Below, piece after piece: positions 9,939-32,145 of a DNA stretch of 64,000 nucleotides. Below the pieces are notes generated by a model. The model searched no databases. It had not been told where the DNA came from and saw only the letters and a list, made by a program, of their open reading frames with translations. The position numbers were made by a program, and so were the translations under genes. Each line of letters opens with the position of its first letter. Position 1 is the first letter of the stretch. The stretch is from Candidatus Hydrogenedens sp. GTDB taxonomy: Bacteria > Hydrogenedentota > Hydrogenedentia > Hydrogenedentales > Hydrogenedentaceae. The stretch lies in assembly GCA_049968235.1 (NCBI GenBank), contig JBMFRC010000002.1:160001-224000 (forward strand). Direction: 5' to 3'.

Positions 9939-10120
9939 ATCTTATCTCCTTATTCTTTTATTAAGACGCAATTAATATTACCTTAATAAACACTTTATTT
10001 GTCAATATCCCATTTCCAAATATAGAGTATTCTAATATCATAATCATAAAATTTGATATAATTAGACCTTCTTTATTATCCCTCAATGAAAAATTAAACA
10101 GTTTTTTGGGGAGTATTATT

Positions 10121-10963
10121 ATGTCAGAACATCAGAATTTTTTGCCCGGAACTGAAATAGAAATTCTTAATCCGAATATCGAGTTAGGGAAAATTAAACA
10201 TATCCTTTTTGATTTTGATGGGACAATTAGTTTACTTCGGGAAGGTTGGCAAAATATTATGGGACCCATGTGTGTTGAAATGATTTGTGGAGGACATAAA
10301 CCCACTCCAGAAATTGAGAAAGAAGTGGCAGATATGATTGATGAAACTACAGGAATTCAAACCATTTTCCAGATGCAGAGATTGGTAGAAATGGTTAAAG
10401 CACATGGCTTGGTCCCAGAAGATAAGATTTTAGATGAGTGGGGCTATAAAGCCATTTACAATGAACGATTGCTTATGCCCGTTCGGGAACGAATCCAAAA
10501 ATTGAAAAATGGGAAGGTAACATTAGAACAAATGACCGTTCGAAAAGTGTTTTGTTTTTTAGAAGAATTAAAGAAAAGAAATGTTACAATGTATGTATTC
10601 AGTGGCACAGACAGAGAAGATGTTCAGCATGAGGCAAGTGTTTTAGGTGCAGATAAATATTTTGCAGAAATATGGGGAGCCTTACCCAGTATTGAGGAAT
10701 ATTCGAAAGAAAAAGTAATTCGCGAGATTATTTCAACCCATAATTTGCATGGACCGGAAGTTATGGCTGTAGGGGATGGACCTGTAGAATTAAGAAATGT
10801 CAAAGAACAGGGAGGGATTGCTTTAGGCGTGGCTTCGGATGAGAAAAAAGGTTACGGTTGGGATATGCATAAGAGAAAAAGATTATTGCGGGCAGGTGCT
10901 GATATCCTTATTCCTGATTTCAGTGAATATGATAGACTTATAAAATATTTGTTTTGTGAGTAA
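10121..10963 (+). CDS. HAD superfamily hydrolase
   Basis: Motif I FDFDGT near the N-terminus and a C-terminal GDGxxD motif (VGDGPVE). A GGGGAG Shine-Dalgarno precedes the ATG at 10121. The track start at 10106 is TTG. Confidence 0.7.
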   Translation: MSEHQNFLPGTEIEILNPNIELGKIKHILFDFDGTISLLREGWQNIMGPMCVEMICGGHKPTPEIEKEVADMIDETTGIQTIFQMQRLVEMVKAHGLVPEDKILDEWGYKAIYNERLLMPVRERIQKLKNGKVTLEQMTVRKVFCFLEELKKRNVTMYVFSGTDREDVQHEASVLGADKYFAEIWGALPSIEEYSKEKVIREIISTHNLHGPEVMAVGDGPVELRNVKEQGGIALGVASDEKKGYGWDMHKRKRLLRAGADILIPDFSEYDRLIKYLFCE

Positions 10964-11569: not shown

Positions 11570-13750
11570 TTAATGATGCCTAACATAGTATATAACCTTT
11601 TTAAGTGCATCCACAACATATTGAATATTTTCTTCTGTCAATAAAGGATGAAGCGGTAGTGATAAGATTTCATTAGAAATTTGCGTAGCAATTGGACAAT
11701 CTTCAGGACGAACACCACATACCTGCTGGATATATGGATGTAAATGAACACCATAGAAATGTATCCCGGTGCCTATATTTTCCTGACGAAGCATAAACGC
11801 AATTTCATCTCTTGTTCGATTTACCTTTTTCAGGTTAATGCGAATAACATACAAATGCCATGCAGGTTGAACATAATCTTTCACAGTAGGAAGAATAATT
11901 TCATCGATTTCTGAAAGAGAATGATAATATCTCGTGGCTAATCTATGGCGAATACTATTTAAAGATTGCAATTTCTTTATCTGCTCTACCCCAATACTTG
12001 CAGAGATATTACTCATAGCATATTTATACCCTGCAGTTATCAATTCTTGGGGTCGAAGAAAAGCACTTCTACCATATCTATCCCATGCAGTATCTGCCAG
12101 GCCATTTGTCGCAAGGATACGAAGGTATTTGGCTTTTTCCGAATCGGATAGAGTAATTATACCCCCTTCAATAGTTGTAATGTTCTTTGTGGCATAGAAA
12201 CTGAAGCAAGTGCGTTCTGCAATAGAACCTATTTTTTTAGAACGATATATTGCCCCTAAGGCATGAGCAGAATCTTCAATTAAATGTAAATGGTATTTGT
12301 CTGCTATTTTTTGTATCTCATCAAGGTCACAAGGATGCCCTGCAAGGTCTACAGGAATTATGGCTTTTGTTTTTTCTGTAATCTTCTCTTCAATTCGTTG
12401 TGGGTCCATATTGTAAGTGAGAGGGTCTACATCTACAAATACGGGGGTAACGCCCATGTTCAACAGAGTATTAATGGTGGATACCCATGTAATTGGTGGT
12501 GTTAGAACCTCATCCCCCGATTTTATACCTGCCTCCACCAGACAAAGATGTATCGCAGATGTACAGGAAGAAACAGCAACACTCTCCTTTGCTCCAACAG
12601 TAGAAGCAAAGTTTTGTTCAAAAGCATGGATATTATGTCCTGAGGTTAGCCACCCACTCCTCATAGCCTGAATAACCGCTTGTTCCTCTTCAGGACCTAT
12701 AACAGGTTTCGCTAAGGGTATAAATAAAGGAGCCGTGGGTTCCCCACCTTCCTGAACAGGAATTTTTTTTAATTTCTTAAACTGCAAAGCATTAATGTAT
12801 TTGTCAAAAAACGGGTCTTCATGAGGATAGCGTTCAAGCCAATTGGTAATTTCCTGTAATGTTTTTTGGATTGTATACTCCGGCTTAAAATGAAATTGCG
12901 TGGTAAATTTCTGAAATTGCACACGAAAAGTTCTTAAGTCTTCATCATCACGAACTACATCTATTTCTGTCCCATCGACAGCTAGAGCAATTTCCTGTGC
13001 CAAATCTATAATCCTTTTATTGAGGGAATTATGTCCTATATTAAAAATCTGGTTATGTACTTCATGCTGTTCTGCTTCACAAATCAAAGAAATTGCCCGA
13101 GCACAATCACGAACATGTAAAAAAGGTCGCCATTGATTCCCGCCTCCCCGAACTTCTATCCTTTTTTGTCTTTTAGCCGTAGAAACCATTTGATTAACAG
13201 CAAGGTCAAAACGCATCCGTGGTGAATAGCCAAAAAGTGTAGAAAATCGGATTATTACGGGTGAAAAATTTTCATGGGCTAATCTCTGCAATTTTTCCTC
13301 TGCTTCTCTTTTTGTTTGACTAAAAGTAGATATAGGGTTTGTGGGACTATCCTCATCAAGCCAATCTCCAATGCCTTTTCCATACACCGCACAGGTAGAA
13401 GCAAAGATAAATTTTTTCACCTCTTTTTGACTGCTCTGACGAGCCAATTCAACAGTGCAATCTACATTCACTTCCCGGGCTGTAATTGGGCAAATAGCAC
13501 AGGTTGGGTCATTGGCAAGTCCAGCAAGGTGGATTACAATATCAATATCATTAAACAGGTCGGGAAATTCCTGCCAGTGACGAATATCACCCTGTATCAT
13601 TTCTACATTGCTATCTTTTAACCAATTCGCTTCTTCGGGAAATCCGAAACACATACGGTCAAATACACGAATCTTATGTCCTTTCTGTAATAATTCATAA
13701 ACGACCCAGCAGCCTAAATATCCAGCACCGCCTGTCACAAGTATTTCCAT
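11570..13750 (-). CDS. Fusion protein: N-terminal NAD-dependent epimerase/dehydratase (extended SDR) domain plus C-terminal DegT/DnrJ/EryC1 PLP-dependent sugar aminotransferase
   Basis: GGAGYLG Rossmann motif at the N-terminus. The C-terminal half has DegT hallmarks including the PLP-lysine context (SFYATKNITTIEGG). Start is set at the ATG at 13750 (MEILVTGG) with a GGGAG Shine-Dalgarno; the ORF-track start is further upstream. Confidence 0.8.
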   Translation of the reverse strand: MEILVTGGAGYLGCWVVYELLQKGHKIRVFDRMCFGFPEEANWLKDSNVEMIQGDIRHWQEFPDLFNDIDIVIHLAGLANDPTCAICPITAREVNVDCTVELARQSSQKEVKKFIFASTCAVYGKGIGDWLDEDSPTNPISTFSQTKREAEEKLQRLAHENFSPVIIRFSTLFGYSPRMRFDLAVNQMVSTAKRQKRIEVRGGGNQWRPFLHVRDCARAISLICEAEQHEVHNQIFNIGHNSLNKRIIDLAQEIALAVDGTEIDVVRDDEDLRTFRVQFQKFTTQFHFKPEYTIQKTLQEITNWLERYPHEDPFFDKYINALQFKKLKKIPVQEGGEPTAPLFIPLAKPVIGPEEEQAVIQAMRSGWLTSGHNIHAFEQNFASTVGAKESVAVSSCTSAIHLCLVEAGIKSGDEVLTPPITWVSTINTLLNMGVTPVFVDVDPLTYNMDPQRIEEKITEKTKAIIPVDLAGHPCDLDEIQKIADKYHLHLIEDSAHALGAIYRSKKIGSIAERTCFSFYATKNITTIEGGIITLSDSEKAKYLRILATNGLADTAWDRYGRSAFLRPQELITAGYKYAMSNISASIGVEQIKKLQSLNSIRHRLATRYYHSLSEIDEIILPTVKDYVQPAWHLYVIRINLKKVNRTRDEIAFMLRQENIGTGIHFYGVHLHPYIQQVCGVRPEDCPIATQISNEILSLPLHPLLTEENIQYVVDALKKVIYYVRHH

Positions 13751-13830
13751 TATAATTGACTCCCGAATGAAAAAATATTTACTATATTTTATCATTAAAT
13801 ATGAACAAATTGTAAACGAAAGGAATAGTT

Positions 13831-15021
13831 ATGTGGAATATTATATTTACACTGATATTGTCTTGTTCCACTCTCATTATAAGTCAGGTCAGTTTTTCTC
13901 AAGAAAATCCTTGTCTCAAAGAGGTTAATGACCTACCCCCTTTTAACGGAATTCCCAATCTATTCCAGTTTTGTGATGGAACCCCTGTGAAAACAATTCA
14001 GGATTGGGGAAAACGCAGAAAGGAATTGATGGATATTCTCGTGTTTTATGAATATGGACACTTACCCCCACCGGCAAAGATAAAAAAATCGGAGTTGATT
14101 GTTGAAGAAAAATTTTATAATGACAAAGGAATATATAGAGAATATAATGTTTATTATGGTCCACCCGATTTTAAGTTGGATGTTATGATGTTTTTGCCTA
14201 TTTCTGCACGTGAGAAACCCTGTCCTGTTATTCTATTCATACCTAAGTTCTGGAAAGAAAATGATGATAATAAAGAGATTGCTATCAAATGTATAGACCG
14301 TGGCTATGCTCTTTGTCTTTATGATAAAAGTGTGCTGGATGATGATAGTGGAAATAGAGACCAGATGATATACAAACTCTATCCTGCTTGTGATTGGGGT
14401 TCGTTAGGTGTTTGGGGGTGGGGTGCATTACGCGTCCTCGATTTTCTTGAAACGATTCCTGAAGTAAACACGAAACAACTAACATTAACAGGGCATTCGC
14501 GTAGAGGTAAAGCATCCCTGTGGGCGAGTGCTAATGATGAACGAATACCGTTAGTAATACCTCAATCCAGCGGAACAGGTGGTTGCGGTTCCTATCGAAT
14601 TGTAGGAAAGGGCTCAGAAACATTAAAAATTATTACAACAGAGGTTGCTCCTTATTGGTTTGTACCCCGATTAAAGGATTTTATTGGTAAAGAAGACCGT
14701 TTGCCTTTCGACCAGCATTTTTTGAAAGCGTTGATTGCTCCACGCGGACAGTTATCCCGCGAATCTTTAGGTGATTTATGGGCAAACCCCATGGGAACGC
14801 AGGTGATGCACGAATGTACCATTCCGGTATATAAATTCTTAGGTGTGCCTGAAAATATCGGCATACACTTTAGAGAAGGTGAACACGCACTACAACCTTC
14901 AGATTGGGATGTTGTTCTTGATTTTTCGGATTATTTCTTCTTTAAAAAGTCTCCACCCGCAGGACTTAATGTTTTACCCTTTAAAGACACTCCGAAACCA
15001 TCATGGGCTATTTCTAATTAA
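13831..15021 (+). CDS. Carbohydrate esterase family 15 (4-O-methyl-glucuronoyl methylesterase)-like, secreted
   Basis: Signal peptide and a G-x-S-R-x-G nucleophile motif (LTGHSRRGKASLWA), as in bacterial CE15 enzymes. Size is about 400 aa. Confidence 0.65.
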   Translation: MWNIIFTLILSCSTLIISQVSFSQENPCLKEVNDLPPFNGIPNLFQFCDGTPVKTIQDWGKRRKELMDILVFYEYGHLPPPAKIKKSELIVEEKFYNDKGIYREYNVYYGPPDFKLDVMMFLPISAREKPCPVILFIPKFWKENDDNKEIAIKCIDRGYALCLYDKSVLDDDSGNRDQMIYKLYPACDWGSLGVWGWGALRVLDFLETIPEVNTKQLTLTGHSRRGKASLWASANDERIPLVIPQSSGTGGCGSYRIVGKGSETLKIITTEVAPYWFVPRLKDFIGKEDRLPFDQHFLKALIAPRGQLSRESLGDLWANPMGTQVMHECTIPVYKFLGVPENIGIHFREGEHALQPSDWDVVLDFSDYFFFKKSPPAGLNVLPFKDTPKPSWAISN

Positions 15022-15548: not shown

Positions 15549-15854
15549 TATATTTTCCACTACAAAACAATATAAACAAACCACAATAAAATATTTAAAG
15601 ATATAGGTAAAAAGAACCTGTGTTGGTTTTTCATTTTATAGCAAAGAAATTTTCTGTTTCTCTAAATCTTTTAATAGCAAATTACTACCCCGTAATGAAA
15701 ATATAAAGATGATGAACTTTTATTCATCTGAATATTTACATAACATTAGATACAATTTGTCAAAGCGATGAGATTTTAAAAAGGTCAATGAGTTGTATTT
15801 TTGTTAAAATATGGACGTATTTTTTAAGATATAGTGAAAGAAAAGGAAGTTACT

Positions 15855-16997
15855 ATGAATTCAAATGTAAGAGAGTTTATTCAACCTTTTGAGAAAGTCC
15901 ACGAAGATTTATATTTTTTTGCTAAAAAGGCAAAACAGGACGGCGAGAAAGTAGCAGGCTTTTTATGCACTTATTCTCCGCAGGAATTGTTTCACGCAGG
16001 AGGGTACTTTCCTGTTCGCATAATAGGTAAAGAAGGTGGTACCCCATTAGCAGACCAATGGTTACAACCGTATGCATGCAGTTTCGCTAAAGGCGTACTT
16101 AATTTAGGTTTAACAGGCGACTTCTCTTTTCTAAATCTGGTAATATTTAGTCATACATGTGATACAATGCAAAATCTGGCAGAAGTATGGAGAAGACGCG
16201 TAGAGGGAATTCCGATTATTGTGGTTTCCACTCCTAATTTGAATGCGGGAGAGATTGCTCTTACTTATTTAAAGCGTGAATTAACACGAGTAAAAGAGAA
16301 AACAGAAAAAATTTCAGGAAGTAAAATAACTGATGAAAAACTTTTAGAAAGTATAAATCTCTACGAACAACACAGAAACAATATAAATCGTTTGTATCAG
16401 TTAAGACAGTTAAACCCTTCTTTAATAACAGGAACGGAAATGTTTACAGTTATCCTTTCTTCTTTTTTGATGAAGAAGGAAGAACACAATAAATTGTTAG
16501 AAGATTTGATTAAAGAATTGGAAAAGTTATCCCCTCAAGAGTTAAAAAAACCACGCATTTTGGTAGGAGGTAGTATTTGTCAGGCACAAGGTTTTATCCA
16601 ATCTATCGAAACTATAGGTGTTGTAGTTTCTGATGATGATTTATGTATGGGTTCGAGGTCTTATGTGCTTCCGCATGTTTCTCAAAAAGAACCCATTGAA
16701 ATGTTAGCGCAGATGTATCTCTCCCGAATTCCCTGTCCTGCATTTCATAAACCGGGTTATGACCCTGCTGAGATCTATATTGACAAGGTGAAAAAAGGTC
16801 ATATTGATGGTGTAATATTCCTTCAAACGAAATTCTGTGACCCTTATGGATTTAACTATCCGTATATTCGTAAAAGATTGGAACAGGAAGGAATTCCCAG
16901 CCTTCTTTTAGAAGTAGAACAAAATCAGCCTGTTCCGGAAGCGTTCCGCACACGGGTTGAAGCATTTGTAGAAACATTAAGTAGAAACATTAAATAG
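15855..16997 (+). CDS. 2-hydroxyacyl-CoA dehydratase / benzoyl-CoA reductase family subunit (HgdB/BcrB-like)
   Basis: CoA-substrate-specific enzyme family composition (FLCTYSPQELFHAGG, C-rich HTCD region). ATG at 15855 with an AAAGGAAG Shine-Dalgarno; the track start at 15834 is GTG. Confidence 0.7.
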   Translation: MNSNVREFIQPFEKVHEDLYFFAKKAKQDGEKVAGFLCTYSPQELFHAGGYFPVRIIGKEGGTPLADQWLQPYACSFAKGVLNLGLTGDFSFLNLVIFSHTCDTMQNLAEVWRRRVEGIPIIVVSTPNLNAGEIALTYLKRELTRVKEKTEKISGSKITDEKLLESINLYEQHRNNINRLYQLRQLNPSLITGTEMFTVILSSFLMKKEEHNKLLEDLIKELEKLSPQELKKPRILVGGSICQAQGFIQSIETIGVVVSDDDLCMGSRSYVLPHVSQKEPIEMLAQMYLSRIPCPAFHKPGYDPAEIYIDKVKKGHIDGVIFLQTKFCDPYGFNYPYIRKRLEQEGIPSLLLEVEQNQPVPEAFRTRVEAFVETLSRNIK

Positions 16998-17014
16998 ATA
17001 ATGAGTTCTGATAT

Positions 17015-17839
17015 ATGAGCGAATATTTTGTAATTGGGCTTGATATAGGTTCTGCAACGGCAAAAGCGGTGCTCGTTGATAATCAGGGAAAAATCTGTGC
17101 TTATACAGTTCGTCCTACGGGAGGAAGATTGCTTCAATCTGCTGATGATGTAAAAAGAGAAGTGTTATCTCAGGTTGGTGCCACAGAAGAGTTGATAAAG
17201 GCTATAATTACCACGGGTTATGGCAGAGATATTGTTCAAAATAAAACAAAAAGTTTAACAGAAATAACCTGTCATGCCAAAGGTGCGTATATAACAAATC
17301 CCAAAATACGATTCGTAATTGACATAGGAGGGCAGGATTCAAAAGCAATCTTACTTGAACCTGATGGACAGGTAGGTCGATTTGAAATGAACGATAAATG
17401 CGCAGCGGGAACGGGGCGCTTTTTAGAGGTAATGGCACGGACACTCGGAATTCACCTGGATGAAATGGGAGATATGGCAGTTCATTCAAAAATATGTTCA
17501 AAAATTTCCTCTACATGTACAGTTTTTGCAGAAAGTGAAGTAATCTCATTACTGGCTCAGGGAGAAGAGATACCGTCTGTTGTTTCGGGTTTATGTCGCG
17601 CAATTGCGGAGCGCATATATGGATTGGCATCGCGTGTGGGGATTATCGCACCGATAATGATGACTGGAGGGGTTGCAAAAAATAAGGGTGTTGTAAGTTG
17701 GTTGTCAAAAATATTAAAACAAGAAGTAATTATACCTGAAGAACCGCAAATCATCGGTGCTTTAGGTGCGAGCATGATTGGTCTGGAATGGACCCAAAAA
17801 AATAATGAAATCATGAATAAAATAACACAAAACATATAA
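17015..17839 (+). CDS. CoA-substrate-specific enzyme activase (BadF/BadG/BcrA/BcrD/HgdC ATPase, 'archerase')
   Basis: N-terminal LGIDIGSATAKAVL, an ASKH-fold ATPase motif. Size is ~270 aa, as for HgdC. Confidence 0.8.
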   Translation: MSEYFVIGLDIGSATAKAVLVDNQGKICAYTVRPTGGRLLQSADDVKREVLSQVGATEELIKAIITTGYGRDIVQNKTKSLTEITCHAKGAYITNPKIRFVIDIGGQDSKAILLEPDGQVGRFEMNDKCAAGTGRFLEVMARTLGIHLDEMGDMAVHSKICSKISSTCTVFAESEVISLLAQGEEIPSVVSGLCRAIAERIYGLASRVGIIAPIMMTGGVAKNKGVVSWLSKILKQEVIIPEEPQIIGALGASMIGLEWTQKNNEIMNKITQNI

Positions 17840-17858
17840 AGAAGGAATTGGAGATATT

Positions 17859-19100
17859 ATGAGTCAGCGTGTACCTATTCATTCCACAGCAAAGATGAAA
17901 GAGTTAATGGGTTTTTACTATATGATGGCAAAATCTGCAGAGAATGACCCTAACCAGAAAATTGCCTGGATTACCAGCGGTGGACCTGTAGAAATTTTAC
18001 ATGCAGGTGGGGTTATTCCTATCTATCCTGAAAATGTCGCTGCTATGGCGGGTACACTGAAAATCTCAGATGAAATTTGTGCGATAGCAGAAGAACAGGG
18101 CTTCTCCCGCGATTTATGTTCTTATGCACGGACAGATATCGGTTCTGCCCTTTCTGGAAAAGGTCCTATTATGGGCACTGCCAGTCCAAAACCAGATTTT
18201 TTAGTCTGTTGTAATAATATTTGCGGTACGGTAACAAAATGGTATGAGGAATTACAACGAATATTTAATGTCCCATTGATTTTCATTGATGCACCATTTC
18301 AATATGGGATAAAAGATAGACCTGAAGCGATAGATTATATGGAAGCACAATTAAGGAAAATGATAGACCAGGTTGGTGAAATTACGGGGAATCCTATATC
18401 ATGGGATAAGTTTATGGAAACACTGGACCTTGCAGACCGGGCAGTAAAATTATGGCGGGAGATTCAGGATTTATTACAGCATAAGCCTGCCCCAATGAAT
18501 TCTTTTGATACTTTTATTCATCTGGCTCCTATTGTAACCTTGCGCGGCACACAAGGTTGTATCGAATATTATGAAACATTAAAAGCGGAAATGTTAGAGC
18601 GAATAAATCAGGGTATCGGAACATTAGAGAAAGAAGAATATCGGCTGGGTTGGGATAATCTGGCAATATGGTATAAGATAAAATTCCTATCAGAACGTTT
18701 TTCTCAGCATAATGCAGCATTGGTTGTCTCCACATATACACGAAGTTTCTGTTATCAGGCAGAAGACAGAGATATTTCCAATCCCCTTAGGGCAATGTCT
18801 GCAGATTATCTGGCAGGTTATATTAATCATGGATTGGATTTCCGCGAACGGGAACTTTATCAGATGGTAAAGGATTTCAGTTTGGATGGATTGGTAATGC
18901 ACTCCAACCGTTCCTGTCGTGCATATTCTTTCGGACAATATGAACTCGCTCGTACCATGGAAGATAAATATGGCGTTCCTGTTCTTTTAATCGAAGCGGA
19001 CCAGAATGATACTCGTATGTGGAGTGATGAGCAGGTCGGAAATCGTATTGACGCATTTATGGAACGTGTTGCCAGCAAAAAGAATAAGAATATTGCATAA
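17859..19100 (+). CDS. 2-hydroxyacyl-CoA dehydratase / benzoyl-CoA reductase family subunit (HgdA/BcrC-like)
   Basis: Paralogous to the upstream subunit (ITSGGPVEILHAGG; LVCCNNICG cysteines). GGAG Shine-Dalgarno before the ATG. Confidence 0.7.
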   Translation: MSQRVPIHSTAKMKELMGFYYMMAKSAENDPNQKIAWITSGGPVEILHAGGVIPIYPENVAAMAGTLKISDEICAIAEEQGFSRDLCSYARTDIGSALSGKGPIMGTASPKPDFLVCCNNICGTVTKWYEELQRIFNVPLIFIDAPFQYGIKDRPEAIDYMEAQLRKMIDQVGEITGNPISWDKFMETLDLADRAVKLWREIQDLLQHKPAPMNSFDTFIHLAPIVTLRGTQGCIEYYETLKAEMLERINQGIGTLEKEEYRLGWDNLAIWYKIKFLSERFSQHNAALVVSTYTRSFCYQAEDRDISNPLRAMSADYLAGYINHGLDFRERELYQMVKDFSLDGLVMHSNRSCRAYSFGQYELARTMEDKYGVPVLLIEADQNDTRMWSDEQVGNRIDAFMERVASKKNKNIA

Positions 19101-28670: not shown

Positions 28671-29975
28671 ATGAAAAACTTTTATTTCTCGTTACTCCTA
28701 ATTACATTTATTTTCAGTATCCTTTTCTGTTTTTCTGTTTCCGCAATAGACAAAGATAAGGATATGCTATATGTCGGCTCTGCTAAACGGATTGTTACTC
28801 CGGACCCGTTACTGCCGGTATCAGGAGGTGTAGGGACACCAGAACCTGTCGAAAAAAAGATTGGCGATTTGTTTGCTCGTACGATGGTTATGAAAAAAGG
28901 AGATGTAGCAGTAGCTATTGTTAGTCTTGACTTTTTAGGTTGGTCATCCGTATTAGCGGATAAAATCCGTGCACTGGCTCCTCAAATTCCACCTGAAAAT
29001 ATCCTTGTAGGCGTTACGCATACACATAGTGCACCGGAAACCTATGGATTTGTTGATGAGAAGGGAAATTGTTCTGCTGATTTGAAATATCTTGACTGGG
29101 TATGCCTACAAGCAGGCGAAGCAATCAATGAAGCATATAAGAACATGAAGCCTGCCTATTTAAAGATTGCTATGGGTGAGGCAAAAGGAAAAATTGCTTA
29201 TAATTATTATGCAGATGAATTATATGACCATCGTTGCAGTGTATTACAGGCAGTCTCTGCGGAGAAGAAAAAAGAAGGGAAGGTGATTGTAACGCTGGTA
29301 AATTATGCTATTCACCCGGAGGTTATCGGGGATAGTCAAAAGATTTTATCGCCCGACCTTTGTGGTCCTTTATATGACAAGATTGAAGCAGAAACGGGAG
29401 GCATGGCAATGTTTATGAACAGTGCTCAGGGAGGTATGGTCACAGCAGATTGCCGTGGACCGAATGGAGATATTCAGACATGGGATGAATGCATCCGTAT
29501 TGGCGAATTGTTAGCCAGCGAGGCATTGCGTATCGTAAAGGATGCTCCCATCCAGAAAAATCCCACATTGTATTGCACCCATACTCCTGTTGAATTTCCG
29601 ATTGACTCTCCACTACTTCGTATGGTCTTGAAAAATTCACCAATAAAATATCCTATCACAGAAAAAAATACGATACCTACACGAATTAATTTGATTAATG
29701 TTGGGACCGCACAAATAGTAACAATACCTGGCGAAGCCCTGCCCAATATCGGTTTTTACTTAAAACGCAAAATGCCCACTCCACATCCTTTTTTGTTCGG
29801 TTTGACAAATGATGCCTTCGGTTATATCCTTACCAAAGTAGACTGGAATAGTTTTAAAATATATGAATATATTTCACGGACTGGTTTGGGAGAAATGACG
29901 GGCGAAATCCTTATTGATACCATATTAAAATTGGTCAATCAATCCCCCAAACCTGACCCCATTGAAAAACAATAA
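28671..29975 (+). CDS. Neutral/alkaline ceramidase-like N-terminal domain protein, secreted
   Basis: Signal peptide and a GVTHTHSAP motif resembling the HTHSGP motif of the neutral ceramidase family. Confidence 0.5.
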   Translation: MKNFYFSLLLITFIFSILFCFSVSAIDKDKDMLYVGSAKRIVTPDPLLPVSGGVGTPEPVEKKIGDLFARTMVMKKGDVAVAIVSLDFLGWSSVLADKIRALAPQIPPENILVGVTHTHSAPETYGFVDEKGNCSADLKYLDWVCLQAGEAINEAYKNMKPAYLKIAMGEAKGKIAYNYYADELYDHRCSVLQAVSAEKKKEGKVIVTLVNYAIHPEVIGDSQKILSPDLCGPLYDKIEAETGGMAMFMNSAQGGMVTADCRGPNGDIQTWDECIRIGELLASEALRIVKDAPIQKNPTLYCTHTPVEFPIDSPLLRMVLKNSPIKYPITEKNTIPTRINLINVGTAQIVTIPGEALPNIGFYLKRKMPTPHPFLFGLTNDAFGYILTKVDWNSFKIYEYISRTGLGEMTGEILIDTILKLVNQSPKPDPIEKQ

Positions 29976-29982
29976 AAGGGAA

Positions 29983-32145
29983 ATGAACTCATCTAAAACG
30001 GAATTATCACACAAAAATCAAAGACAGTCTTGTTTTTCTGCTGTTGATAGTTCCTTACTTTTGTTTATTCTGCTTTTAGGTTTTTTTCTGAGGAGTTATC
30101 GCATTGATTCACTCTCTTTATGGATCGATGAGTTTGTTACTACATATAAACTGTATCTTTCACCATCATTTGACGAATTTTTATCTTTTTTCAATGTCTA
30201 TCAGTCCGACCAAATTCCATTATCACATCTGATTTACTATTCGATATTTCGTTTGTTTTCGATACCTCTCGCGAATATTGAAATACTTCGCTGGGTCTCT
30301 GTGCTTATCGGAGTAATAAATCTTATCCTGTTCTTTATATTTGTAAAACTATCCTTAGGTCTGCGAACTGCTTTACTTGCAACTCTTTTGCTTGCTCTCT
30401 CTCCATTTCACATTTTATTTGCACAGATGATAAGACCATATATCTTTTATGAGTTTGCAGGATTGTGTTCATTGGTATCAACAATCTTACTTTACAAAAA
30501 ACTTTCCTGGTTTCGCGGATGGCTATGGTTGTTATCTAATACTTTCCTGTTTATTTCACATTACACCGGGATTTTATTAATTCTCATTGAAATATTTTTT
30601 ATATCCTTGCAATTTGTAAAATGCAAAAGGGTTCTCTTCTTATTATTTCCTATTTTATTATTCGGGATTATTACCTGTATTATCTCTTTATTTACAACAA
30701 ATTCGATACCCATATATACAAAAGCAGACGACTTCATTATGGGTATTCCATCGGTTTACAAATGGCTAACCGATTTATTTGCTGACGATGCTATTCTTAC
30801 TAACGAACCTTTTTTTTATCAGGGGCAGACGAGTTCTGTTATTTCTTCTTATTGGCTTAACGAAATTATAGGTTTACACTTATGGTTCGATACGCTCCTT
30901 ATCATTTTTTCCTTTTTTTCAATTATTTATGTGTTACTTGATTTATATTCGAAATGGAAAGATGTATGCGACAAAAAAGAACAAGCGTCATCCTTTTATT
31001 TTTTTCCTATATGGCTAATAACATCACAACCGATTATTCCTTTTCTATTAACTGTGGTCATAGCACCTATTCTTCTTCTGACTTTCCTGTCTTTTCTTAT
31101 TTGGCCCTGTATGCAAACAAGATATACCCTTTACTGTTCATTTGCGATGTATCCACTTATTGCTTATGCTATCGTAAATATCAAACATAGCAAAATTAGG
31201 CAAATATTAGTAGCATGGCTTTTAATTGCCTTTTGTTATCAGACGTTTGTTTCTGCACTTTCTCAAAAAACAACAGATTTTAAGACCGCTGGAAAGATTA
31301 TTTCTCAACGTAGCAAACCTAATGAACCAATACTTACATGGGGAATCTTTTATATTTCTACACCAGTAACTAATGAAATGCTTGCATACTATACAGAAGT
31401 CCCAACTGAAAATATAATACCTGTCTATAGTTTCCCTGATACAATAAACTGTCTCAAAAAACTTTTTTGGGAGAGAAAAAAAGAAACCGCATGGTTGGTA
31501 ATAGAACCGTATGTTTTTCATTTCCCTGATGAAAATTTTATAGAAATGTATTTTTATAAAGCAGGGATAAAATTTGAAAAGACCTTTTTGCCGGGAATGA
31601 ATGGTCTCTGGTTATACCATTTGAGCAAAGATACAAATTCTTTTAGTGAAATGATTGATATTCCTGAATATATCGATTACAATCCATTTATTGAGGTTTT
31701 GAAGAAAGTAAACGCCCCTGATAACATTCTGGAAGAAGCCCAGCATGAATTAAAAAACCACATTGATTTTTATCATCCACCTACCCCAATGATTTGGAAT
31801 TATATTGCATGGTCTGCCCTTGATAGGAACAAACCTGAACTTGCAGAATGGTTTGCCAGATGTGCAATATACCTTCAACCGCAGACACCCTGGGGCTATC
31901 ATTCTCTCGCTATCAGTCAAATGGAACAAAATCATGTACAAGAAGCCCTGAATACAATGCAACAATGCTTTGAAAGAGACACAACAGGTATTCATAAAAG
32001 GCATTATCACCCTCTTATTCATGCCATATACATAGACAAAGATATTAATCATGCAAAACAATTGATAAAGGAATTAGAGGGAAAAGGTGGTTTTGTCAAC
32101 CCAATTTATAAAAAAAGGGCAGGAATCATAAATATGCTTAATTAA
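29983..32145 (+). CDS. Polytopic membrane glycosyltransferase, GT39/GT83 (PMT/ArnT)-like, with a C-terminal TPR-like domain
   Basis: More than 10 predicted TM helices in the N-terminal 430 aa, with a conserved early loop (IDEFVT) and a soluble helical C-terminal domain. ATG at 29983; the TTG track start is rejected. Confidence 0.6.
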   Translation: MNSSKTELSHKNQRQSCFSAVDSSLLLFILLLGFFLRSYRIDSLSLWIDEFVTTYKLYLSPSFDEFLSFFNVYQSDQIPLSHLIYYSIFRLFSIPLANIEILRWVSVLIGVINLILFFIFVKLSLGLRTALLATLLLALSPFHILFAQMIRPYIFYEFAGLCSLVSTILLYKKLSWFRGWLWLLSNTFLFISHYTGILLILIEIFFISLQFVKCKRVLFLLFPILLFGIITCIISLFTTNSIPIYTKADDFIMGIPSVYKWLTDLFADDAILTNEPFFYQGQTSSVISSYWLNEIIGLHLWFDTLLIIFSFFSIIYVLLDLYSKWKDVCDKKEQASSFYFFPIWLITSQPIIPFLLTVVIAPILLLTFLSFLIWPCMQTRYTLYCSFAMYPLIAYAIVNIKHSKIRQILVAWLLIAFCYQTFVSALSQKTTDFKTAGKIISQRSKPNEPILTWGIFYISTPVTNEMLAYYTEVPTENIIPVYSFPDTINCLKKLFWERKKETAWLVIEPYVFHFPDENFIEMYFYKAGIKFEKTFLPGMNGLWLYHLSKDTNSFSEMIDIPEYIDYNPFIEVLKKVNAPDNILEEAQHELKNHIDFYHPPTPMIWNYIAWSALDRNKPELAEWFARCAIYLQPQTPWGYHSLAISQMEQNHVQEALNTMQQCFERDTTGIHKRHYHPLIHAIYIDKDINHAKQLIKELEGKGGFVNPIYKKRAGIINMLN

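Follow-up and report, generated by a model that had tools for sequence, protein, structure and literature searches.

We examined a single gene that joins a short-chain dehydrogenase/reductase (SDR) domain to a DegT-type pyridoxal phosphate (PLP) aminotransferase domain in a 64,000-nucleotide stretch of a Candidatus Hydrogenedens contig. This whole stretch is referred to here as the window, and coordinates and residue numbers are those of the window and of the 726-amino-acid (aa) product of the gene. The complete coding sequence was placed on the minus strand at positions 11570 to 13750 (stop codon, 11570 to 11572) from the list of open reading frames (ORFs), Pfam matches, an AlphaFold model, and homologs. 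The ORF list has the minus-strand frame open without interruption from 11570 to 13795. Because homologs are 719 to 731 aa long and begin with M-x-[VI]-L-V-T-G-G, and because a Shine-Dalgarno-like GGGAG can be read in the sequence (13760 to 13764, minus strand) 9 nt before the ATG at 13750, the 726-aa product is likely, rather than one from a 741-aa start.

The protein consists of an extended-SDR domain with the NAD (nicotinamide adenine dinucleotide)-dependent epimerase/dehydratase fold (aa 1 to 312; 12815 to 13750), an interdomain linker (aa 313 to 342; 12725 to 12814), and a DegT/ArnB-like PLP aminotransferase domain (aa 343 to 726; 11573 to 12724), all on the minus strand. The Pfam family for NAD-dependent epimerases/dehydratases (PF01370) matched aa 3 to 239 (E value, 4e-45; 154.5 bits against a cutoff of 20.9). 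The DegT/DnrJ/EryC1/StrS family (PF01041) matched aa 351 to 716 (E value, 4e-119; 398.4 bits against a cutoff of 19.8), covering profile positions 3 to 359 of 360, and the same region matched the ArnB structure 1mdo. The linker, recognized from the translation, column conservation, and model confidence, reads DPF..N...K.L..PV.EGGEP; its residues P313, N320, L327, P331, V332, G335, G336, and P338 are invariant in the alignment columns, and it is common to the Phe-type proteins described below and their nearest Tyr-type fusions. The AlphaFold model of the full-length protein had a predicted local distance difference test (pLDDT) score of 92.0 and a predicted template modeling (pTM) score of 0.85, with the linker at a pLDDT of at least 85, and this confident single-unit model with its ordered linker argues for a true fusion rather than two genes. 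A sequence-only reading of this DNA had proposed a single-ORF fusion of an SDR to a DegT enzyme, and the continuous frame, both Pfam domains, 120 full-length fused homologs, and the confident model all bear this out. Two genes with a missed stop codon are ruled out by the continuous frame, the fused homologs, and the AlphaFold model.

The aminotransferase half has an intact PLP site. The Schiff-base lysine, Lys522, lies in the motif SFYATK of the translation (12185 to 12202, minus strand; Lys codon at 12185 to 12187), and Asp493 lies in IEDSAH; in the alignment these two motifs pair with FSFHAIK and IEDAAH of ArnB. Since neither Lys522 nor Asp493 varies across the 55 sequences aligned, the domain is identified as an aminotransferase, as opposed to a His-type dehydratase. 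It is closest to ArnB (279 bits to 1mdo; 351.2 bits to the ArnB equivalog family NF008658) and then to PseC, but it scored below the equivalog cutoffs for ArnB (631 bits), PseC (TIGR03588; 334.4 versus 423.5 bits), and LegC (TIGR04181; 230 versus 420 bits). The half is ArnB-like and is not assignable as ArnB. The SDR half scored below the equivalog cutoffs for GalE (129.5 versus 262.3 bits), LegB (93.4 versus 475 bits), PseB (45 versus 407.75 bits), and ArnA (39.1 versus 777 bits). It does not resemble ArnA, PseB, or PglF, the SDRs of the pathways cited in the sequence-only reading; its nearest solved relative is the C4-dehydrogenase Cj1427.

A homolog search across 5.8 billion proteins returned 2831 matches at an E value of ≤1e-10, of which the best 120 are all ~725 aa long with both domains present. 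The named members all belong to Candidatus Hydrogenedentota, except for one metagenome-assembled genome (MAG) labeled Nitrospiraceae. The nearest named relative of the window protein is from a Candidatus Hydrogenedens MAG, and a single-protein scan of genome contigs recovered close Hydrogenedens-like relatives only. Names in the databases include [quoted passage not shown] and [quoted passage not shown]; such bifunctional labels were already assigned by the NCBI and JGI pipelines, and the architecture is thus already catalogued by automated annotation. The fusion had first been presented as a peculiarity, its partners being normally separate enzymes. Instead, it belongs to a widespread family, fused in each of the best 120 of the 2831 matches, labeled by pipelines, and paralleled by repeated independent fusion.

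A phenylalanine at the catalytic tyrosine position

The SDR half has the features of the extended-SDR fold. The TGxxGxxG motif is present as T6-G-G-A-G-Y-L-G13, together with D31, and the fold is two-lobed with a C-terminal nucleotide-sugar lobe. The Rossmann NAD motif within it, G7-G-A-G-Y-L-G13 (13712 to 13732, minus strand), was assigned from column counts. The Ser/Thr-Tyr-x-x-x-Lys triad is incomplete: T119 and K147 are present, and the Tyr position is occupied by F143. The SDR half is a member of the fold family that is atypical as to its triad.

The motif corresponding to YxxxK reads FSQTK (F143-S-Q-T-K147; 13310 to 13324, minus strand) in the translation and in alignments, with Phe replacing the catalytic Tyr and the Lys kept. 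Upstream in the protein, T119 of S118-T119-C120-A-V-Y-G (13379 to 13399, minus strand) takes the catalytic Ser/Thr position, as judged from the translation and from alignment to S121 of 6wj9/6wjb. In a phmmer comparison with PDB sequences, PISTFSQTK of the query aligned with PISEYGIDK of 6vo6, and the engineered S121A/Y146F pair of 6wj9 falls exactly on T119 and F143. Three independent alignments agree in placing Phe143 at the catalytic Tyr position, as had been read from the letters alone. A neighboring Tyr that fills the site, or an alignment out of register, is ruled out by these three alignments and the mapping of 6wj9. The residue next to T119, C120, occupies the position of the Asp in the TDK motif of PglF and of the Cys in the TCE motif of TunA (motif table of PMC8987622), an assignment that rests on the S/T-x-x-V-Y-G register.

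A single origin of the Phe-type clade

The relatives share the Phe, a point that the sequence-only reading had marked for checking: with the query added to the best 120 matches, 116 of the 121 sequences have F at position 143, 4 have L, and 1 has Y. We then considered two wider samples. The first comprised metagenome loci with unfused SDRs. These sister SDRs scored 300 to 343 bits to the SDR profile of the fusion family. Each adjoins a separate DegT gene, with both gene orders represented, and the Tyr is present in all of them. For the second sample, the SDR half alone was searched against 1.84 billion representatives clustered at 50% identity, which yielded standalone SDRs, many CBS-domain-SDR proteins, and other fusions; 135 of 150 representatives read Y..K.

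In the pooled alignment of 280 sequences (153 sisters and 127 members of the Phe clade), position 143 is Y in 152 of the 153 sisters and F in 119, L in 4, and Y in 4 of the 127 Phe-clade members. Position 119 is S or T in 152/153 sisters and in 121/127 of the Phe clade, the other 6 having A. Lys is found at position 147 in 140/153 sisters and 124/127 Phe-clade members. Some Tyr-type sisters read YxxxN (L026 4222 to 5289, L034 3997 to 5016, P0222, and P0237) and R, H, or S is found in others; the Lys is thus not absolutely fixed in the wider SDR clade. C120 is Cys in 124/127 of the Phe clade and 146/153 of the sisters. The Rossmann residues G7, G10, and G13 and the acidic D31 are kept in all Phe-clade sequences that cover them and in nearly all sisters, with G8 occasionally Ala; these four, together with D55, S118, R168, G174, R178, R180, D182, N186, R208, D215, N237, and R273, show little or no variation in either group. 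Residues H74, A76, Q206, H212, and D269 are better conserved inside the Phe clade than outside it. Cys84 is invariant in the Phe clade, and Cys34 is specific to it.

A bootstrapped neighbor-joining tree was built from the concatenated SDR and aminotransferase columns with the catalytic column removed. All F and L sequences, together with P0105, grouped with 98% bootstrap support, and the Tyr-type fusions L009, P0121, and P0123 fell outside. This clustering indicates that Tyr gave way to Phe once, at the base of the clade, with later drift to Leu. P0105 is a probable reversion to Tyr, with Lys147 meanwhile lost. The Phe-type subclade is essentially Candidatus Hydrogenedentota. Two of the outlying Tyr-type fusions have peculiarities of their own. 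P0123 is 908 aa long, with ~390 extra N-terminal residues. In P0121 (L093 8001 to 10040), the nearest Tyr-type fusion from Hydrogenedentota, the N-terminal half of the aminotransferase domain is divergent and the profile matches only from position 235, such that here the aminotransferase half, rather than the SDR half, may have changed.

The ratio of SDR to aminotransferase divergence was 1.16 to 1.22 for Phe-type pairs versus 0.97 to 1.03 for Tyr-type pairs, so that relaxation of the SDR half in the Phe clade is slight at most. At only 1.16 to 1.22 times the divergence of the aminotransferase half, the SDR half is under strong purifying selection, and a decaying SDR domain is ruled out by this ratio of ~1.2 together with dozens of invariant positions. 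A scan for residues conserved in at least 85% of the Phe clade and at most 15% of the sisters identified C34, R58-L59-Q60-E61, M90, D93, E97, S98, E101, V127, F128, T191, and F314. Most of these positions fall in helices 56 to 61 and 88 to 108 of the model.

Fusion of this kind of SDR to an aminotransferase occurred more than once. P0147, P0173, and P0203 are independent fusions with different linkers, P0254 has the aminotransferase-SDR order, and P0123, with its long N-terminal addition, is a further case. Adjacency of the two genes in both orders and repeated independent fusion give strong support, by the Rosetta-stone argument, to the view that the two activities act consecutively. Many of the Tyr-type sisters carry additional sequence. 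An N-terminal extension of 130 to 250 aa is present in 81 of 150 Tyr-type sister representatives, and SDR ORFs with a similar extension lie beside a separate DegT gene in L013, L027, L051, L058, and L077. Pfam searches of five extended sisters (P0133, P0135, P0140, P0153, and P0164) found CBS domains in four, one of which also has a GNAT domain, and no domain in the fifth. CBS-regulated Cj1427-like SDRs appear to be uncharacterized.

Literature searches returned no description of this SDR-aminotransferase fusion or of a Phe-type clade, and no experimental paper on it was found. Tyr-less nucleoside diphosphate (NDP)-sugar SDRs of the Mx3K type and pseudo-SDRs are already known. What we found no description of is a deep monophyletic Fx3K/Lx3K clade in which a Cj1427-like SDR is joined to an ArnB-like aminotransferase and for which sister fusions that retain the Tyr can serve as natural controls.

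Genes around the fusion

The fusion gene is usually an orphan whose neighborhood varies between lineages, and the Tyr-type fusions are orphans too. Across 12 loci, no dehydrogenase or dehydratase partner was kept near the fusion gene. We found no conserved glycan cluster around it; only a YvyF-like gene recurs, with occasional genes for GT2, 4HBT thioesterase, and sulfatase proteins. The window contains no second SDR or DegT paralog.

The recurring gene encodes a 183-aa double zinc-ribbon protein resembling YvyF/TIGR03826 (10981 to 11532, minus strand). It lies 37 nt downstream of the fusion on the same strand and is probably cotranscribed with it. The protein scored 52.8 bits to TIGR03826 against a cutoff of 124; the TIGR03826/YvyF family is named "flagellar region protein." The gene is found downstream of the fusion in the Hydrogenedens-like loci L003 to L007 and L010 and in the distant loci L001 (47% identity) and L089 (41%), and jackhmmer recovered the protein in L001, L003 to L007, and L010. 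These homologs are 173 to 190 aa long with a double CxxC (L001 12375 to 12947; L003 12217 to 12768; L005 12233 to 12793; L089 9232 to 9771). The gene is absent from loci L002, L009, L011, L091, and L092 and was not seen beside the sampled Tyr-type or split versions. It may encode a regulator or partner of the fusion protein.

Other neighbors are more restricted. A gene resembling CE15 glucuronoyl esterases is divergent from the fusion (window 13831 to 15021, plus strand; L003 8696 to 9922; L005 8722 to 9918), and a HAD hydrolase gene lies convergent beyond the zinc-ribbon gene (window 10106 to 10963); this CE15/HAD synteny is confined to the Hydrogenedens-like lineage. At a distance of 2 kb from the fusion, two genes resembling the 2-hydroxyglutaryl-CoA dehydratase D component (HGD-D) lie on either side of a BcrAD/BadFG activase gene (window 15834 to 19100, plus strand). 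Cj1427 makes 2-hydroxyglutarate, and a functional tie between this cluster and the fusion was considered; in relatives (L003 to L005) the fusion does not have this cluster beside it, and the proximity is probably a coincidence.

A polytopic membrane ORF of 727 aa (window 29962 to 32145, plus strand), in which an LWIDEF loop motif lies toward the N terminus and the C-terminal region is soluble, had been labeled an ArnT-like transferase of the GT39/83 type, with its start given as 29983. It has no Pfam match even at an E value of ≤5, and BLASTP detected no resemblance to the PMT_2 gene that lies near a Tyr-type fusion. It lies 16 kb from the fusion, beside GH28 and other pectin degradation genes, and relatives do not keep it in synteny with the fusion. 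With no Pfam match, this distance, and no synteny, the label finds no support and is given no weight here; it is neither confirmed nor excluded. Just upstream of this ORF is a ceramidase-like gene (window 28671 to 29975, plus strand), 15 kb from the fusion. Another ceramidase-like gene lies beside the Tyr-type fusion in L093 (6407 to 7864), and the two are distant paralogs (22% identity; E value, 2e-17).

Function of the SDR half and comparison with known systems

We favor, with a probability of roughly 45%, the reading that the SDR half is an active dehydrogenase with an Fx3K site, a counterpart of the Mx3K enzymes PglF and WbpM, and that it supplies a keto-sugar to its own aminotransferase. 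The Cj1427-like half would bind NAD and an NDP-sugar and oxidize a sugar hydroxyl, most likely the C4-OH, to give the keto-sugar; the choice of C4 is inferred from Cj1427 and ArnB only. The ArnB-like PLP half would then transaminate the keto-sugar with glutamate, yielding an NDP-4-amino-4-deoxy-sugar. Hydride transfer would persist in the Fx3K site, with the hydroxyl proton presumably passing to the S/T119-C120 pair or to water, and the bound NADH (reduced NAD) might be reoxidized by alpha-ketoglutarate from the aminotransferase half, as in Cj1427.

The Tyr was lost, the NAD and nucleotide sites were kept, and the SDR half diverged only ~1.2 times as much as the aminotransferase half; the domain is thus one that selection maintains for ligand binding and that lacks the classical proton relay. 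Activity is favored because it needs no extra enzyme and fits the invariant NAD site, the nucleotide residues, K147, and C120. It also accounts for the repeated fusion and adjacency of the SDR/aminotransferase pair, and it is supported by the orphan state of the fusion gene, which has no conserved neighboring dehydratase to supply a keto-sugar. The residues that replace the Tyr are hydrophobic (F and L), like the Met in PglF.

Several observations weigh against an active dehydrogenase. The Y149F change in GalE is reportedly ~10^4-fold down in activity, and Y-to-F changes usually cripple SDRs. T119 is relaxed in the Phe clade only (Ala in 6/127 versus 0/153; one-sided Fisher P of ~0.008, calculated by hand and uncorrected for phylogeny), three Phe-clade members have R or S in place of Lys147, and P0039 and P0055 read A-L-K, with neither hydroxyl present. 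The pattern across Tyr, Ser/Thr, and Lys resembles a breakdown of the proton relay in its entirety. Moreover, Cys120 did not arise as a Tyr replacement, since it is equally conserved in the Tyr-type sisters, and the scan of 280 sequences found no plausible replacement acid/base gained with the Phe among the clade-specific positions.

Joint relaxation of Tyr, Ser/Thr, and occasionally Lys in the Phe clade only is best accounted for by the main rival explanation, which we regard as unlikely but serious: hydride transfer has been lost, the SDR half is a module that binds NAD(H) and NDP-sugar in support of the aminotransferase, and the keto-sugar comes from another enzyme. The same explanation would account for the one-base reversion to Tyr being almost never fixed. 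Such a module could conceivably serve as a scaffold, a substrate hand-off site, or an allosteric or redox sensor, comparable to the inactive SDR subunits PhBS-beta and BbsC and to the regulators MAT2B and NmrA. Yet the nucleotide-binding arginines, K147, and C120 are at least as conserved as in the catalytic sisters, and loss of the first step demands the simultaneous gain of another source of keto-sugar. None of the 12 loci has a conserved dehydrogenase or dehydratase partner near the gene. Further, active NDP-sugar SDRs without the Tyr exist (PMC8987622).

It is distinctly improbable that the chemistry itself has changed, with NAD(H) used on a Tyr-independent step (at an imine/iminium, at an activated C=C, or centered on Cys120) and a product that differs from that of the Tyr-type ancestors. 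The invariant NAD site, Cys120, Cys84, and the clade-specific Cys34 would fit such a change, as would the block of clade-specific substitutions that accompanies the Phe (R58-L-Q-E61, M90, D93, E97, S98, E101, V127, F128, and T191). Extended SDRs with incomplete triads and other chemistry are known (ApdA, PMC10636320; TunA, PMC8987622). However, most of the clade-specific positions lie in the 56 to 61 and 88 to 108 helices, and in SDR folds such helices more probably form interfaces than line the active site. Neither the aminotransferase half nor the set of nucleotide-binding residues differs from that of the Tyr-type fusions, which argues for the same substrate class. Finally, an artifact or pseudogene, in which the Phe is a sequencing error or two genes were misjoined by an assembly or frameshift error, is hardly credible and already refuted, as the same Phe and architecture recur in well over 100 independent 90%-identity clusters (NCBI, ENA, JGI, and Logan), the linker is conserved and confidently modeled, and the frame is continuous. 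The two main readings still standing are those first drawn from the sequence, namely, a scaffold that binds NAD but is inactive and a variant mechanism.

The Tyr of YxxxK is held to be near-essential in SDR enzymology, and few natural exceptions have been characterized (Mx3K PglF and WbpM). We consider it rather doubtful, though worth stating, that the proton relay is wholly dispensable in this lineage-wide selected SDR, whether as a new Fx3K solution based on Cys/Ser with self-recycling of NADH or as a redox-silent sensor of NAD(H) and NDP-sugar incorporated in an aminotransferase. If the Fx3K solution is true, the net reaction would be sugar-OH plus Glu to sugar-NH2 plus 2-hydroxyglutarate with no free cofactor, and the single replacement of Tyr by Phe at the root of the clade would be a natural change of mechanism. 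The Tyr form (L009, P0121, P0123, and P0126 to P0128) and the Phe form make a matched natural experiment, with a single dated switch and all else constant. Their comparison would bear on the need for the Tyr hydroxyl in C4 oxidation within the Cj1427-like clade and on internal recycling of alpha-ketoglutarate and NADH. The gene is a conserved, putative envelope- or glycan-precursor gene that apparently belongs to the core gene set of the candidate phylum Hydrogenedentota. It also calls for caution with "bifunctional oxidoreductase" annotations made from domain content alone. It poses a clean, cheaply testable question of enzymology rather than representing a new kind of system.

Among known systems, Cj1427 is the nearest solved structure to the SDR half, with a close structural and sequence relationship and shared clade motifs. 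It oxidizes C4 of guanosine diphosphate (GDP)-heptose, and its tightly bound NADH is reoxidized by alpha-ketoglutarate, which becomes L-2-hydroxyglutarate (PMC10680097). In contrast to the fusion protein, Cj1427 is a standalone enzyme with the canonical Tyr (PISEYGIDK) and Asn at position 120. Its identity to the SDR half is 30%, too low for substrate or nucleotide specificity to be transferred. Because the canonical Tyr is absent from the SDR half, we do not claim it as a member of the Cj1427-type ping-pong dehydrogenases.

PglF and WbpM resemble the Phe clade in having a hydrophobic residue in the Tyr position with activity kept, and in their pathways a DegT aminotransferase follows (PglE, WbpE type). 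Both have Met in place of the Tyr and are active, with Thr395 and Asp396 of the adjacent TDK motif deprotonating the C4-OH; in TunA, the Cys of the TCE motif is the catalytic acid (PMC8987622). PglF and WbpM differ from the fusion protein in being membrane-anchored, unfused UDP-GlcNAc 4,6-dehydratases, not simple dehydrogenases, of the Polysacc_synt_2 subfamily with a TDK motif. The fusion protein scored 41.8 bits to Polysacc_synt_2 (PF02719) over aa 3 to 161 only and reads S-T-C-A plus F, which places it outside the Mx3K group. The SDR half may work like the Mx3K enzymes, though it is no member of that group. In WbpM, the M438Y change reportedly lowers kcat.

The pair formed by ArnB, the UDP-4-amino-4-deoxy-L-arabinose:2-oxoglutarate aminotransferase, and the ArnA dehydrogenase domain offers a likeness for the other half, which is nearest to ArnB; there, an SDR makes a 4-keto-sugar that a DegT enzyme aminates. 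In WbpB/WbpE and GnnA/GnnB, alpha-ketoglutarate made by the aminotransferase reoxidizes the NADH of the dehydrogenase, and the same coupled oxidation and transamination is proposed for the fusion protein. WbpB and GnnA differ in having the Gfo/Idh/MocA fold, in acting at C3, and in being separate proteins from their aminotransferases.

MAT2B and NmrA are regulatory proteins with the SDR fold. SDR pseudo-subunits with a structural role only exist as well (PMC13418739), and the phosphite dehydrogenase ApdA is an extended SDR in which an incomplete triad accompanies new chemistry (PMC10636320). In PhBS-beta, BbsC, MAT2B, and NmrA the cofactor or substrate site is usually degraded as well, whereas the fusion clade keeps its NAD- and nucleotide-binding residues.

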